In this document: piece after piece, positions 3,001 through 9,000 of the stretch
Numbering within the stretch: position 1 is the first letter of the stretch
How the letters are laid out: the number at the start of each line of letters is the position of its first letter
Assembly (NCBI RefSeq): GCF_000026545.1
Contig: NC_011601.1
Reading direction: 5' to 3' (one strand)
From: Escherichia coli O127:H6 str. E2348/69
GTDB lineage: Bacteria; Pseudomonadota; Gammaproteobacteria; Enterobacterales; Enterobacteriaceae
DNA length: 64,000 nt
Made by a program: the position numbers

Positions 3001-6000
3001 TGTGTTTGCGAAAGAATGGGGCTGCGTTAATTAATTTTGTGGATGGTCGAGTGACAGACGGATTTATCTTGCGCGAAGGTGAGTTTGTCACTTCATTACA
3101 GGCACTGAAAGAGATCGGAATAAAAGCAGGCTTTTCAGCTTTTGCAGAAGAATAAACTCATCTACAATCTTGCGCGGGGCTGAACTCCCGCTGAGTAACA
3201 CCGTGCCACCGGAGAAAACCGATGGCACGCAACGTAAAATATTACAATTCTGATAATTCGCCCGTTCTTGCCTGCACGCACGAGCGGTATTCTCACGCAT
3301 TCAAGTCTGAATGGTTCCAACACCCTCCATGTACTGAAGAGCAGGCTGAATGGACAATTCAGTGTTACCGCAGGCGCGGATACGAGGTTAAGAAAGCCCT
3401 CAGCCTCGATTATCGTCACTGGATAATCTATGTCAGGCTCCCTTATTCCGAACGCTCACCGCGCCCATCCCGCACATACCAGCAACGGATCTGGAGGTAA
3501 CGTGCGGATATTACTTCGACCTGTTCTGGTACCGGAACTTGGGCTGGTGGTCCTTAGGCCGGGCCGTGAATCCATGCAAGTATTTCATAACCCTCGAGTG
3601 CTGGTGGAGCCTGAACCGAAAAGCATGCGCGGTCTGCCGTCCGGAGTCGTCCCTGCCGTTCGCCAGCCGCTGGCGGAGGATAAATCATTACTGCCATTTT
3701 TCAGCGATGAGCGGGTGATTCGTGCTGCTGGCGGCGCTGGGGCACTGTCTGACTGGCTGTTGCGTCATGTCAAATCCTGCCAGTGGCCTCATGGTGACTA
3801 TCATCACAGTGAAATCGTCATACATCGTTACGGTACCGGCGCGATGGTGTTGTGCTGGCACTGCGACAACCAGTTGCGTGACCAGACATCCGAATCACTC
3901 GGGCAACTTGCTCATCAAAACCTGTCAGCATGGATGATTGACGTCATACGCCATGCAGTGAATGGCACGCAGGAGCGGGAATTATCGCTGGCTGAATTGT
4001 GCTGCTGGGCTTCTGTAAATGATGTAGTGGATGCCATGACCGAAAATATGGCGCGTCGAATCCTGAAGCTTCCGGGTGAAAAAATCCGCTCAGTATACCG
4101 CGAGAGCGACATCGTACCGGGAGAGCAGACCGCCATCAGCATACTGAAGCAGCGCACAAAAAATATTGCGCCGTTGCCTCACGCCCACCAGCAACAGAAT
4201 CCACCACAGGAAAAGACGGTGGTCAGCATTGCCGTTGATCCGGAGTCACCGGCTCAGTATCTCCAGCGCCAGAAACCACAACGGGAAGAGATGCCTGTAT
4301 ACACGCGCTGGGTAAAAACGCAGAAATGCATGACGTGTGGCAATCAGGCAGATGATCCGCATCACATCATTGGTCATGGACTGGGAGGGATGGGAACAAA
4401 GGCTGATGATTTGTTTGTTATTCCGCTGTGCCGTAAATGCCATAGCGAACTACACGCCGGGGTAAAAGATTTTGAAGAAAAACACGGCAGCCAGCTGTTG
4501 TTGCTGATTCGTTTTTTAATGCACGCGAGAAATTCGGGTGTCCTGAAGTGGAAAGCATGAATGACTGAACGCATAGAATTTGTTTTGCCTTACCCGCCAA
4601 CGGTGAACACTTACTGGCGACGTCGTGGCAGCACATATTTTGTATCAAAAGCCGGTGAGCGTTATCGCCGTGATGTGGCGCTTATTGTTCGCCAGCAGCG
4701 GCTGAAATTAAACCTGTCCGGAAGGCTGGCGATAAAGATTATTGCAGAGCCACCGGATAAACGTCGTCGTGACCTGGACAATATCCTGAAAGCACCACTG
4801 GATGCGCTGACGCATGCCGGACTTCTCATAGACGACGAGCAGTTTGATGAAATCAATATTGTGCGCGGTCAGCGCGTTCCTGGGGGGCGGCTGGGCGTGA
4901 AGATTTACAAAATTGAGAGTGAGTGATCGTAAATATGATATATCCGGAAATTACAGGCAAAAGCGGCGAGCATTTACGTCTAAAAACGCTGGAAGCCGTC
5001 TGGATCCAGGGGAAATTACGGATGTGGGGGCGTTGGTCGTATATAGGTGGTGGCAAACCAGGAAATATGTTCAATCAGTTGCTGGCATCCAAAAAACTGA
5101 CAAAAACCGCGGTCAATGAAGCCCTGCGTAGAATCAGGGAGTCAGGGATTGATAAACCAGAGCTGGAAGCATTCTTGCGAGAGATGATCGCTGGCAGACA
5201 GAAGAGCTGGTTGTCTCACTGTACTGATGCAGAGGCGTTACGCATTGATGGGGTGATAAGTAAAGCGCTTGCACGTTATCCTGGATTGATTGATATCCTG
5301 CGGCAAAGGTACGAAGGGCGGGGGATGAGTAAACGCAAAATGGCTGAATTGTTGAATGAGGTTCACCCTGAGTGGTGCTATGCAACATGCCGCAATCGTA
5401 TAGATATGTGGCTGAGAATAGCTGAGTTTATTCTGTATCCACTGATGCGAGATGCATTTTCTTTTACTGACGCTTAGAATCTGGAGGGCGTTTGTTGTTG
5501 CACGAAGAGGATTTTTGGCTGGTAGTAAGGTTTGTGCAGTTTTAGAAAAAAAGCTTGTATTTTTAGCCATAAACTGTTTCAATCCAGCTACGCTTCGCAA
5601 AGCTGTACCGCGAGGCGAATAGCAGACATGGACACCTGAAAGAACCCGCTTTATGCGGGTTTTTTTTATGCCTGAAAAACGGCACAGAACATTAAACGCG
5701 CTGGTTGTTGTGAATACTGGTCTTTCAGCTTGCTGGCTTTTTCGACAAGAGGTATTGGTATGTCACGTTAACCGGAAAAGGGAAAAAGGCATGCTAAAAC
5801 AGCTGGATATGACCGAAACCGCCAGAGTGGTGTTTAATGAATTAAGCGTCACCGAACCGGCGACCGTCGGGGAAATTGCGCAGAATACTTACCTTTCACG
5901 CGAACGCTGCCAGTTAATACTGACTCAGCTTGTTATGGCGGGTCTGGCAGATTATCAGTTCGGTTGTTACAGACGCCTTCCGCAGTGAAGGCTTTTTAAT

Positions 6001-9000
6001 TTGTGGTAATGGGCGGCTGGTGGGTGTTAGCGGCACCTGCCAGCCATCTGCTCATGCGTTGGGGTCACAAGCAAACCTCAGGCCCATCTGCTTTGCGCAA
6101 AAGCGGTATGAGCCTATCAGAGAAGTGCTTATTGATCTATGATTAATACTGTAAAAATATCCAGTTGTGAGTTAATCAACGCTGATTGCCTGGAATTTAT
6201 CCAGACCTTACCGGAAAACTCTGTCGATCTGATAGTCACAGACCCGCCATACTTTAAAGTGAAGCCCGAGGGCTGGGATAACCAGTGGGAGGGCGACGAT
6301 GATTACCTGAAATGGCTGGACCAGTGTCTGGCGCAGTTCTGGCGGGTACTGAAGCCTGCCGGAAGTCTTTACCTGTTCTGTGGTCATCGCCTGGCATCTG
6401 ACACCGAAATCATGATGCGTGAGCGCTTTAATGTGCTGAACCACATTATCTGGGCGAAGCCGTCCGGACGCTGGAACGGGTGCAATAAGGAAAGTCTGCG
6501 GGCGTATTTTCCGGCAACAGAGCGCATTCTGTTTGCAGAACATTATCAGGGACCGTATCGCCCGAAAGATGATGGCTATGTGGCACAGGGGCGCGAGCTA
6601 AAACAGCACGTCATGGCCCCGCTGATTTCTTACTTTCGTGATGCGCGTAAATCACTGGGAATAACGTCAAAACAGATAGCGGAAGCCACCGGAAAGAAAA
6701 ACATGGCTTCGCACTGGTTTGGTACCAGTCAGTGGCAGTTACCGAACGAGGGTAATTACAACAAATTGCAGGCGTTGTTTGCGCGTGTTGCGGCAGAAAA
6801 ACATCAGCGCGGGGAACTGGAAAAGCCACACCACCAGCTGGTCAGCACATACAGTGAGCTGAACCGGCAGTATACGGAACTGCTGAGTGAATATAAAAAT
6901 TTGCGGCGGTATTTCGGTGTGACGGCGCAGGTTCCGTACACCGATGTCTGGACGCATAAACCGGTGCAGTACTATCCAGGGAAACATCCGTGCGAAAAAC
7001 CGGCAGAAATGCTGCAGCAGATAATCAACGCGAGCAGTCGTCCGGGAGACCTGGTTGCAGATTTTTTTATGGGTTCAGGTTCAACGGTAAAAGCGGCGAT
7101 GGCACTGGGGCGTTGTGCGATTGGTGTTGAGCTGGAGACAGGACGTTTTGAACAGACAGTCAGGGAAGTTCAGGATTTAATCGTTTGAAACGGATGGGAT
7201 TGCAGAATTAATTACGCACCATTATTATTCTGCTACCGGCCCTTTAGCTCAGTGGTGAGAGCGAGCGACTCATAATCGCCAGGTCGCTGGTTCAAATCCA
7301 GCAAGGGCCACCATCACATACCGCCATTAGCTCATCGGCAGAGAGCGTCAGCTTTCGAAACTGGCTGTGTGGGGCCCGGGTCCCCGATGGCAATCCATTA
7401 TTTGCATTATGCGTTGTTAGCTCAGCCGGACAGAGCAATTGCCTTCTAAGCAATCGGTCACTGGTTCGAATCCAGTACAACGCGCCATATTCATTCTTCC
7501 AGATTTCTTCCGGCAGAGCCTTATACTGGAATATACCTGGCTCAGGATATTGTTGAAAATATTATATGTTTGTCAAAAATAAAAGTTCTGTTAAGTATTG
7601 ATTGAGTGTTTGTTATACGGTCTAATGGTTTTTTCAGTATTAAATATTTATCATTCATATGGTGTGGGTAGAGTGAATATTGATGAGGCGTCGGGGTGTT
7701 TCATCCTTAGGCAGCGTATTGATATAGTCAATGCAGCACGAGCAAAGGCCTTCAGCCGTTTGACAGTTTTGTTCTGTACTCCTGATCGTCTTTCGGGAAG
7801 AGACGTTATTCTTCTGAATAGTGATGCTATACAGAGGGTTTGCGATGAGTTCATGGTTGCTAATTCAGAATTATTTGCTCTTGTTCAGGAGTACAACAGA
7901 ATAGCCAGGACCTGTGGTATGGATGAACTTCGGATTACTCATCTGGGGTAGATACATATCTGGATTATCACCTGTTACGGTAAAAAGTGATTGCTTACTG
8001 TTTTTGTGAATGGCATTGCAGCAGCCGGATAATGTCAGTGCTGGCTGACTGTGTACTGGTGGCGGGTGTGGTGGTTGTTGCTTTCCCGTTGCTGAAAAAG
8101 AAAACGCCAGACTGTTAGCCGGAGAAATTTTTAAATACTTCACAATTCAGGCGGTTGACTGTTGTCTGGTTTGCGGGGAGTTTGTTAAAAGAAACTGGCA
8201 TGGTGAATCCACCTGTGCGGAGGGGCAATCAGCGAGTAGGTATATGGGATAATCGCGGATTCAGGTGCTGGTACTGAATTCACCGGGAGGCACCCGGCAC
8301 CATGCAATGGCACATAGCGCCACTCTCCAGCCCCTCTCCGGAGGGGCTGTTTATATTGATTTTGTCAGATGTGAGTAAACTCCTTATGGACTTTGTTGTT
8401 TTAGTCCATAAGGACATATTTGCAGAGTGCAACGGTTATTAAAGCATTCATTCAATACGTTATCTGTATTTGTAGGGCATTCCTGGCTGTTTTTGATTAA
8501 ATTCCAGAATGTTTTATTGAATGGTACTACGTTGTAAATGGTTACAGGTAGCACTTTGTTATTGAGCATGATACCTGTGTGAGTCAGTGTAAATATACTT
8601 TCAGGAGGTAAGAAAGCATCCGATTGATACCAGATTATTAATTTTATTTTACTCCATATGACTGAAAAAGATATTCCGCATGATGGCTGGATAACTGTAT
8701 CAATCACAATCCACTTCATTTAGTTTCCTTGTTTATGCCTTGCTGGTGATGTTCTGAAAAGTATAAATGATATTTTTGATTGTAAACCATAGAGCAGAAT
8801 TATTTTTCTGATGTTGTTTATTGTTTATTTAAATGCAGGGTGGTTTATATCTCGTCTTGTAGTTTATCCATGCATATCTGCTTGATGATGAGGTTTTTAT
8901 TTAAGGTATGGTTTTGTGTTTTTTCTGTATTACATGTCAGGTATTTTAAAGAATTATTTTTCAGATGGTGGAAAGAACCATGGCATTTAAACACTATGAT

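Follow-up and report, generated by a model that had tools for sequence, protein, structure and literature searches.

A conserved RNA leader and an M.EcoGII-family methylase in a lambdoid late-operon cassette of Escherichia coli E2348/69

The window analyzed here is a stretch of 64,000 nucleotides (nt) from Escherichia coli O127:H6 str. E2348/69 (contig NC_011601.1), and its sequence is 100% identical to the chromosome of this enteropathogenic E. coli (EPEC) strain recorded as NZ_CP059840.2. According to the RefSeq annotation, a lambdoid prophage is integrated here beside potABCD. In its late region, the gene of a solitary DNA methyltransferase (methylase) of 349 amino acids (aa) lies between a transcription terminator and a cluster of tRNA genes, and it is preceded by a small gene and a spacer of 150 nt (Table 1). 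An earlier sequence-only reading had described this late-operon position and the DPPY motif and length of the enzyme, and all of them are borne out. As an enzyme, the methylase is nothing unusual: it is already known in kind and adds a further allele to M.EcoGII. The new element is a constrained, covarying RNA leader between the small open reading frame (ORF) and the methylase.

Table 1. Features of the methylase cassette and of the genes next to it, with positions in the window
Feature	Position	Strand	Basis or remark
DUF968/HNHc_6 protein gene, NinG region	3430-4560		Pfam
RusA gene	4561-4926		Pfam
Q-like late antiterminator gene	4923-5477 (RefSeq start 4935)	+	Pfam, PHROG, RefSeq
Candidate late promoter pR'	5555-5583	+	TTGTAT, 17-nt spacer, TTCAAT; read by eye
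Strong intrinsic terminator, tR'-like	5638-5668	+	GC-rich hairpin, then 8 U
Gene of predicted winged-helix protein, 65 codons plus stop	5791-5988	+	WP_000917691.1; PHROG 331
Hairpin P0, over the stop codon of the small ORF	5975-5992	+	Terminator-like site in scan
Structured 5' leader of the methylase mRNA	6006-6138 (with P0, about 5975-6138)	+	Covariance model R1
Leader helix P1	6010-6014/6082-6086	+	Encloses P2 and P3
Leader helix P2	6015-6026/6034-6045	+	
Leader helix P3	6049-6056/6066-6073	+	
Leader helix P4	6090-6094/6100-6104	+	
Leader helix P5	6108-6113/6127-6132	+	
Alternative helix	6063-6067 with 6133-6137; 6069-6073 with 6126-6130	+	Minimum-energy fold of E2348
M.EcoGII-family beta-class N6-adenine DNA methyltransferase gene, 349 aa	6139-7188	+	WP_000611208.1
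tRNA(CAT), ileZ-like	7238-7313	+	ARAGORN; Rfam tRNA 72.5 bits
Decayed tRNA, argN-like position	7321-7394	+	Rfam tRNA 22.2 bits (gathering score 29); no ARAGORN call
tRNA-Arg(UCU), argO-like	7411-7487	+	ARAGORN; Rfam tRNA 70.1 bits

The methylase and its late cassette

The methylase matches the Pfam family PF01555 (N6_N4_Mtase, E 2e-44) and the PADLOC profile MTase_II PDLC03265 (E 3e-159). The DPPY motif occupies residues 35-38 and FMGSG, an FxGxG motif, residues 310-314, which is the order of the beta class. Beta-class methyltransferases give the best matches in the PDB, where the N-terminal and the C-terminal segment each align on their own, and every one of the 2971 homologue clusters is annotated as a DNA methyltransferase. 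An extension of the N terminus into the spacer was ruled out by an in-frame TGA two codons 5' of the ATG.

The nearest characterized enzyme is M.EcoGII, a beta-class enzyme of 349 aa that a prophage of E. coli O104:H4 (C227-11) encodes. Its target is adenine in any context, in double-stranded DNA, single-stranded DNA and RNA alike; the enzyme is unexpressed in its lysogen and deleterious once expressed (PMC5778455). The two proteins are of equal length and align end to end with 316 identities over 348-350 positions; the resulting 90.8% is approximate, as the M.EcoGII reference was machine-read from the SUPREM supplement (PMC11551740) and holds a few errors of optical character recognition (OCR). 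An exact look-up of the OCR-corrected M.EcoGII in the protein collection gave no match, and no cluster representative equals it. The identity amounts to 92% with the phiP27 enzyme and 89% with that of phage 1720a-02, and to 85% and 71% with the reconstructed ancestors Anc291 and Anc284. The M.EcoGII family has been called "very large", and the 1720a-02 enzyme, described as 'very similar', was included in it (PMC5778455). Homologues of 92-93% similarity are listed as 'nonspecific' in a methylome study of O111 Shiga toxin-producing E. coli (PMC6602927). Ancestors reconstructed for the clade share about 70% of their residues with M.EcoGII, and all of them show broad methylation of DNA and RNA; M.PflMI, the closest relative with site specificity, reaches only about 27% identity with M.EcoGII (PMC11551740).

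Judged from its sequence, the methylase is an M.EcoGII orthologue by family membership. The predicted target of the E2348/69 allele would be any adenine, and only upon induction. As the target of M.EcoGII is any adenine, no discrete motif is to be expected of its orthologue, and the target-motif prediction proposed in the sequence-only reading loses its object. The extra methylation motif looked for in that reading is likewise missing from the published long-read methylome of E2348/69, which comprises only GATC, two Type I motifs and CCWGG (PMC8495745). Such an outcome is the one expected of a silent, non-specific enzyme. Indeed, the lack of non-specific N6-methyladenine in this methylome is the picture expected of a gene that is silent in the lysogen.

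The methylase family is widespread. The exact E2348/69 protein sequence was found on 321 contigs. A query of 2.2 kb that includes the leader matched 3276 of 5426 complete E. coli genomes (1685 of them with at least 80% coverage) as well as 293 phage records, mostly of Stx2 phages.

No restriction endonuclease is annotated within 20 kb on either side of the methylase, in agreement with what had been claimed for it. The closest nucleases are the HNH nuclease PtuB of a Septu system (482-1117), the DUF968/HNHc_6 protein of the NinG region and RusA. In the loci of phiP27, 1720a-02 and WGPS2, the methylase likewise has no restriction gene beside it. An anti-restriction role, as previously suggested for this solitary phage methylase, is probable and agrees with what has been published on its closest relative (PMC5778455; reviewed in PMC12707154).

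The Q-like gene upstream matches Pfam DUF1133 (E 2e-101) and Phage_antitermQ (E 3e-6), and it belongs to PHROG 753, 'anti-termination protein Q-like' (E 4e-78). A hairpin begins 160 nt past this gene and is a strong intrinsic (factor-independent) terminator. Its minimum-energy fold has a stem of 12 pairs (11-nt inverted-repeat arms), a 5-nt loop and a run of eight U; with -19.7 kcal/mol and a z score of -5.0, none of 200 shuffled sequences was as stable. The hairpin is kept in five phages, with a loop that varies in phiP27, 1720a-02, WGPS2 and a Stx2c phage.

Homology to phiP27, 1720a-02, Stx2a_WGPS2 and Stx2c phages starts at this terminator and extends through the tRNAs. On its 5' side, the Q genes and inserted genes vary among phages, while cassette and terminator are kept behind different Q types. 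From the extent of the homology block, the conserved unit consists of terminator, small ORF, spacer, methylase and tRNAs. In lambdoid phages, Q loads at the late promoter pR' and RNA polymerase then reads through tR'. By analogy, the cassette would be transcribed only by Q-modified polymerase. The predicted start of the candidate pR', at about 5591, coincides with the start of a weak Rfam alignment to isrK (21.6 bits, 5592-5668, +) that ends at the terminator, as does one to AgrB (26.5 bits, 5563-5668, +). These alignments point to a short RNA of about 78 nt that would run from pR' to the terminator, a promoter-proximal transcript of the lambda 6S, StxS or IsrK type.

Judging by its homologues, the small ORF is a real conserved gene. 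It was noticed in the sequence-only reading and is annotated in RefSeq; its length, 66 aa according to that reading, is 65 codons plus the stop. The protein belongs to PHROG 331 (unknown function, E 3e-36), and its sole Pfam signal is a match to TrmB below the cut-off (E 5e-4). The AlphaFold2 model (pLDDT 91) predicts a winged helix with the topology H-b-H-H-b-b. Its Foldseek neighbours, with E values from about 1e-3 to 1e-2, are DNA-binding winged helices of the IclR/MarR type; further ones are the dimerization winged helix of O-methyltransferases that act on small molecules and the SECIS-RNA-binding winged helices of SelB. At 148 of 173 loci, in genera ranging from Escherichia to Xenorhabdus and Proteus, a homologue lies directly 5' of the methylase. 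The homologues drop to 37% identity with the ORF retained, and they share a core, RCQLILTQL-x-MAGL, and one invariant cysteine (C40). Among the best 120 of 467 homologue clusters, all are small stand-alone proteins and no domain fusion was found.

The suggestion that this protein could be a controller is not supported in the sense of a controller (C) protein of the restriction-modification type. The predicted fold is a winged helix rather than an Xre-type helix-turn-helix (HTH), and neither a restriction gene nor a C-box-like operator was found. The repeat search of 5600-6200 gave no tandem palindromic operator of the C-box type, although a short degenerate one could escape it; apart from the terminator and the P2 hairpin, its hits were limited to some stretches of long-range complementarity.

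A conserved RNA leader before the methylase

In an alignment of the five phages, the 150-nt spacer is more conserved than the small ORF, and the single-nucleotide insertions and deletions present in it fall in loops. The 137 nt 5' of the ATG are 78-82% identical from Escherichia to Rosenbergiella, and the leader is still recognizable in Morganella, Proteus and Gilliamella. The comparison across genera drew on 72 loci from bacterial contigs, with one genome per species. Over 276 genome pairs, the mean identity of the leader is 84.6%, as against 85.6% at codon positions 1 and 2 of the methylase and 49.1% at position 3. The spacer is the most constrained non-coding element of the locus.

The conservation is accompanied by covariation. 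RNAalifold, applied to a plain MAFFT alignment, gave a junction with P1, P2 and P3 and compensatory changes in 8 of 20 pairs. A covariance model, R1, was built from six defined helices, P0 to P5. A single match to it lies in the window (5960-6144, 140 bits), and a scan with the filters off revealed no second copy there. Elsewhere, it finds every methylase locus down to Proteus and Morganella (70-107 bits) and Gilliamella (24-33 bits). In 58 distinct sequences, standard pairs fill 94.9% of the P0-P5 pair cells, compared to at most 45.5% in slid controls, and 25 of 40 pairs have compensatory double changes; 128 double-change cells were observed where 27 are expected, a value that none of 500 shuffles reached. 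The alignment behind these counts was fitted to the model, and they lean towards it. RNAalifold on this model-fitted alignment recovers P0, P1 and P2 with 12 compensatory pairs. Variation in the leader lies mostly in loops, and stem changes are compensated. G.U pairs are frequent on the + strand (alignment pair 216-267, for example, is GU in 42 of the 58 sequences). As a G.U pair would be an A.C mismatch on the other strand, the constraint acts on RNA of the methylase strand.

All six pairs of the hairpin P0 have compensatory changes across homologues; folded from one sequence alone, P0 is weak (z -1.5). In E. coli, UUUUUAAUUU comes after it and makes it a weak second terminator.

The distance to the methylase is fixed as well. 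A degenerate 20-base pattern gave 121 matches in viral contigs, of which 116 lie 136-141 nt before the methylase ATG, counted from the start of the pattern. There are also three chance matches inside an unrelated coding gene, taken to be ribonucleotide-reductase-like, two matches truncated at contig ends and one divergent half-copy of the leader.

No Rfam 15 family matches this element. A scan of 4.1 kb gave no match at E<=1 within 5989-6138, and a scan of 211 nt with lax filters gave only chance miRNA and CRISPR matches (12-15 bits, at gathering scores of 35-82). In the literature, no description of the leader was found, nor any link between EcoGII and the late control or induction of lambdoid phages. 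The spacer was also compared by eye with boxB/nut of lambda, with ops/JUMPstart and with a CRP site (TGTGA...TCACA), and these were rejected for misfits in pairing or spacing. The leader is a conserved, covarying multi-helix RNA outside any Rfam 15 family.

Some variants of the leader were also observed. Divergent half-copies (33 bits), made up of the terminator-like P0, the 5' strand of P1 and P2, occur in Trabulsiella odontotermitis (L010, 1987-2171) and in a viral contig (L159, 8442-8626). They precede an unrelated ORF of 131 aa with a normal GGAGG site, about 830 nt 5' of the full leader and methylase. In Xenorhabdus and Photorhabdus (loci L028-L047, L051 and L066), a shorter leader lies 100-150 nt before the methylase start and cannot be aligned with the full covariance model. 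It keeps GUGAAAUG and a P2-like hairpin (GGCUGGUG...CACCAGCC), and P3 to P5 are absent or different. This hairpin often runs straight into a run of U, which gives it the look of a terminator. Finally, an invariant AUG in P1 (6009-6011) opens a short upstream ORF (uORF; 6009-6146, +, in the window). In most genera it reads MGGWWVL*, with tandem Trp codons; its length is 18 codons in Proteus and 3 in Gilliamella, and in E2348 it extends over 47 codons and ends 5 nt beyond the ATG of the methylase. Its peptide is unconserved, and the uORF is probably incidental.

Proposed control of the cassette and rival explanations

The leader might also act on translation. The methylase mRNA has no GGAGG Shine-Dalgarno sequence, and UGAUC, at -6 to -2 (6133-6137), is the sole stretch conserved in front of the AUG. 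It is complementary to GAUCA in the 3' tail of 16S rRNA and is, from this complementarity, a putative ribosome-binding stretch. In the minimum-energy fold of the E2348 leader alone, P3 is not formed. Instead, the loop and 3' strand of P3 (GGUCAC-AAGCA, 6063-6073) pair with UGCUU-AU-UGAUC (6126-6137), which joins the 3' strand of P5 to UGAUC. Across the family, this alternative helix is 91.6% paired, as against at most 43% in slid controls, and it has three compensatory pairs. In Proteus and Morganella, AAGC is changed to GGAC and GCUU to GUUC, and the 5' strand of P5 needed no change. A pseudoknot between GRUCA in the P3 loop and UGAUC was also considered; it is complementary in nearly all members but invariant, hence unprovable, and was folded into the test of the alternative helix. 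The 3' strand of P3 thus seems to have evolved together with two partners, the signature of a switch between the junction and a second fold in which the ribosome-binding stretch is hidden.

These observations can be joined into one mechanism. In the lysogen, transcripts from the late promoter would halt at the tR'-like hairpin and, in E. coli, also be limited by the second, weak hairpin after the small ORF. Since they would stop before the methylase, the toxic enzyme would not be made. Once Q is produced, terminator-resistant RNA polymerase would read through the cassette. The methylase would then modify many adenines in the replicating phage DNA, and this methylation would blunt those restriction systems of the next host that are sensitive to adenine methylation. 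Translation would form a second layer of control, in which the leader of 130 nt takes one of two folds. The first would be the three-way junction P1-P2-P3 with the hairpins P4 and P5. In the second, the 3' strand of P3 would pair with the 3' strand of P5 and UGAUC, thereby concealing the ribosome-binding stretch. The trigger may be the winged-helix protein (in a Com-like manner), the methylase itself, which would bind and methylate RNA, a metabolite such as S-adenosylmethionine (SAM) or S-adenosylhomocysteine (SAH), or co-transcriptional folding alone.

The different parts of this account deserve different degrees of trust. On the whole, the locus is likely a conserved lambdoid late-operon cassette with an M.EcoGII orthologue as its payload, under both late and leader control. 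Its established parts are the family assignment by sequence, the gene order, the terminator, the missing restriction partner, the silence in the lysogen as documented by the published methylome, and a leader that is conserved and covaries. That the leader of about 130-170 nt (5975-6138) is an undescribed cis-acting RNA switch gating the translation of the toxic methylase is a tentative proposal, conceivable but somewhat short of probable. This caution has its reason in the evidence, which is essentially one clade-level event.

Several points weigh against the account. The candidate pR' agrees with the consensus at 7 of 12 positions and scores under the threshold of the promoter scan. On the RNA side, P3 and P5 were not recovered by RNAalifold on the model-fitted alignment, whose pair counts favour the model as stated above. 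Most of the alternative helix does not vary, and essentially a single clade, that of Proteus and Morganella, supplies its compensatory changes. The leader persists in the 25 of 173 loci without a detected winged-helix gene, which argues against an obligatory protein partner. As for the enzyme, the figure for identity with M.EcoGII is the approximate one given above, and two changes in the target-recognition region, K150Q and D206N, depart from family residues that are 97-100% conserved. Codon 150 (6586-6588) encodes Q here and K in 107 of 110 homologues; codon 206 (6754-6756) encodes N here and D in 110 of 110.

The last point leads to the rival that survives best, namely that the methylase is a fossil, an intact ORF in a dead prophage whose enzyme is inactive or never expressed. 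The state of the prophage speaks for it. From the prophage start, the annotated order runs from integrase, excisionase and exonuclease through the dicB/ydfA-D genes and a DicA/DicC-type, Qin-like immunity region to replication genes. In the middle lie the Septu pair PtuA/PtuB, an IS481-family element (about 1372-2460, -, in the early-right region), hokD and rem, the DUF968/HNH protein, RusA and the Q-like gene. After the methylase come two tRNAs, iraM, a nanS-p-like esterase, two IS elements, lysis genes, terminase and portal. ISEc13 and IS200C sit between esterase and holin (locus L001, 25866-27835). A deletion that reaches from the head protease to the tail-tip genes has fused the two truncated ends, an S49 head protease and an NlpC/P60 tail gene (L001, 35390-35838), so that capsid and tail-tube genes are missing; pseudogenes are also present. 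The host prophage is degraded, defective and of the Qin-like lambdoid type, and the E2348/69 copy of the methylase is probably an intact relic that was never used. The two substitutions at near-invariant positions and the missing methylation signal in culture also favour a fossil. Nevertheless, the ORF, the catalytic DPPY and FxGxG are all intact, an identical protein occurs on hundreds of contigs, and the Q gene, terminator and leader are intact too. Silence in culture, moreover, is the normal state of the whole family. Such a fossil is judged unlikely.

Less likely still is the idea that the 65-aa protein is a DNA-binding transcriptional controller and the spacer its operator or promoter rather than an RNA. 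The winged-helix fold is common to DNA-binding regulators of the IclR, MarR and TrmB types, and the synteny with the methylase is tight. However, the protein is not of the Xre type and there is no restriction gene. In 5600-6200, no palindromic operator was found beyond RNA-type hairpins, and no sigma-70-like promoter reached the scan threshold in 5669-6138. The helices of the spacer covary, with strand-specific G.U pairs, and the spacer is kept where the small ORF went undetected.

It is quite improbable that the spacer is conserved as a DNA-level feature, such as a recombination or module boundary, or as an overlooked small gene. The half-copy (P0, P1 and P2) before the 131-aa ORF in Trabulsiella and in the viral contig looks like a mosaic joint, and the AUG at 6009-6011 does open a short ORF. 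On the other hand, single-nucleotide indels occur in loops, the loops vary while the stems compensate, and the distance to the methylase AUG is fixed in nearly all pattern matches. A protein-coding spacer was rejected on similar grounds: the ORFs at 5930-6142 and 6003-6146 are not conserved, and the uORF, whose length is 3, 7, 18 or 47 codons, encodes no conserved peptide. The least likely rival, implied by the sequence-only reading, is an orphan methylase of the ordinary kind that recognizes a discrete, specific site. The NCBI and PADLOC family names ('site-specific DNA-methyltransferase / Type II MTase') and the 33 substitutions relative to M.EcoGII, concentrated in residues 145-246 of the central region, might suggest it. 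However, these names are generic, the nearest characterized enzyme is non-specific (PMC5778455), ancestors of about 70% identity keep broad activity while the site-specific M.PflMI is far more distant, and the methylome of the strain has no unexplained motif.

The account of a late cassette with a leader RNA has consequences beyond this strain. M.EcoGII is a widely used reagent for chromatin and RNA footprinting, and it is toxic and hard to express. Its discoverers noted the silence in vivo without explaining the mechanism. A dedicated terminator and a leader, usually with a winged-helix gene, travel with the methylase across prophages of Enterobacterales, and together they suggest a mechanism, open to test, by which the enzyme is kept silent and then released on time. 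Should the leader prove to be a true switch, genomes that are among the best studied would contain a new regulatory RNA motif, which could also become a practical handle for the controlled expression of M.EcoGII.

Further features of the prophage were recorded. It carries a Septu defence system, whose PtuB (+) matches PADLOC PDLC00325 (E 1e-83); the AAA ATPase PtuA is annotated just 5' of it and lies mostly before the start of the window (L001, 13723-15096). The tRNA order is identical in phiP27 and Stx2a_WGPS2, where the stx genes come next. At the slot that holds stx in Stx phages, a full-length Rfam match to the small RNA (sRNA) STnc100 (8169-8358, +; 123.6 bits, E 8e-28) adjoins iraM (8384-8719, -).

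Comparison with known systems

The nearest known system is M.EcoGII/M.EcoGI of O104:H4 C227-11. It shares the length of 349 aa, about 91% identity, and the order of DPPY, central recognition region and FxGxG. Both methylases are prophage-borne, neither has a restriction partner, and no methylation by either is seen in the lysogen. In contrast, the E2348/69 allele has 33 substitutions, including K150Q and D206N, and its prophage, in an EPEC strain, is Qin-like and defective. Neither the upstream winged-helix gene nor the structured leader is described in what has been published on M.EcoGII (PMC5778455).

The late region of Stx phages (933W, phiP27, Stx2a), with Q, pR', tR', tRNAs, stx, nanS-p and lysis genes, has the same gene order, and the cassette is 88-90% identical at the nucleotide level. 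The present locus differs in having no stx; iraM and the STnc100 sRNA take that slot.

C proteins such as C.PvuII and C.AhdI are also small proteins of the DNA-binding type encoded just 5' of a modification gene. However, they are dimers with an Xre-type HTH, which bind to C-boxes and thereby set when a restriction gene is expressed, whereas the protein here is a predicted winged helix, with no restriction gene and no C-box-like repeats found in 5600-6200.

RNA switches that occlude the ribosome-binding site, for instance SAM-III (SMK box), resemble the leader in being multi-helix elements directly before the start codon with conserved junction nucleotides. They too have two mutually exclusive pairings, one of them over the ribosome-complementary stretch, which in the leader is a prediction. 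The leader differs by its lack of an Rfam 15 match and of a terminator-type expression platform.

In the com-mom system of phage Mu, known from the work of Hattman and Kahmann, the small RNA-binding protein Com, encoded just upstream, reportedly opens an inhibitory mRNA structure so that Mom is translated. Mu and the cassette have in common an enzyme that is toxic, modifies adenine promiscuously, stays silent in the lysogen and is produced late; for the cassette enzyme, toxicity, promiscuity and late timing are predictions. In both, a gene of some 60-65 codons lies immediately 5'; Com binds nucleic acid, and the winged-helix protein would do so by its predicted fold. In both, an mRNA structure is able to cover the ribosome-binding region, here by prediction. 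Nonetheless, Com is a Cys4 zinc finger, whereas the small protein is a predicted winged helix with a single invariant Cys, and there is no kinship in sequence or fold. The com gene overlaps mom, in contrast to the 150 nt between the genes here, and the leader occurs without the small protein in some loci. Mom and M.EcoGII have been discussed together in a review (PMC12707154). Membership in the com-mom system is not claimed for the cassette; as a functional analogy, Mu com-mom is possibly the closest.

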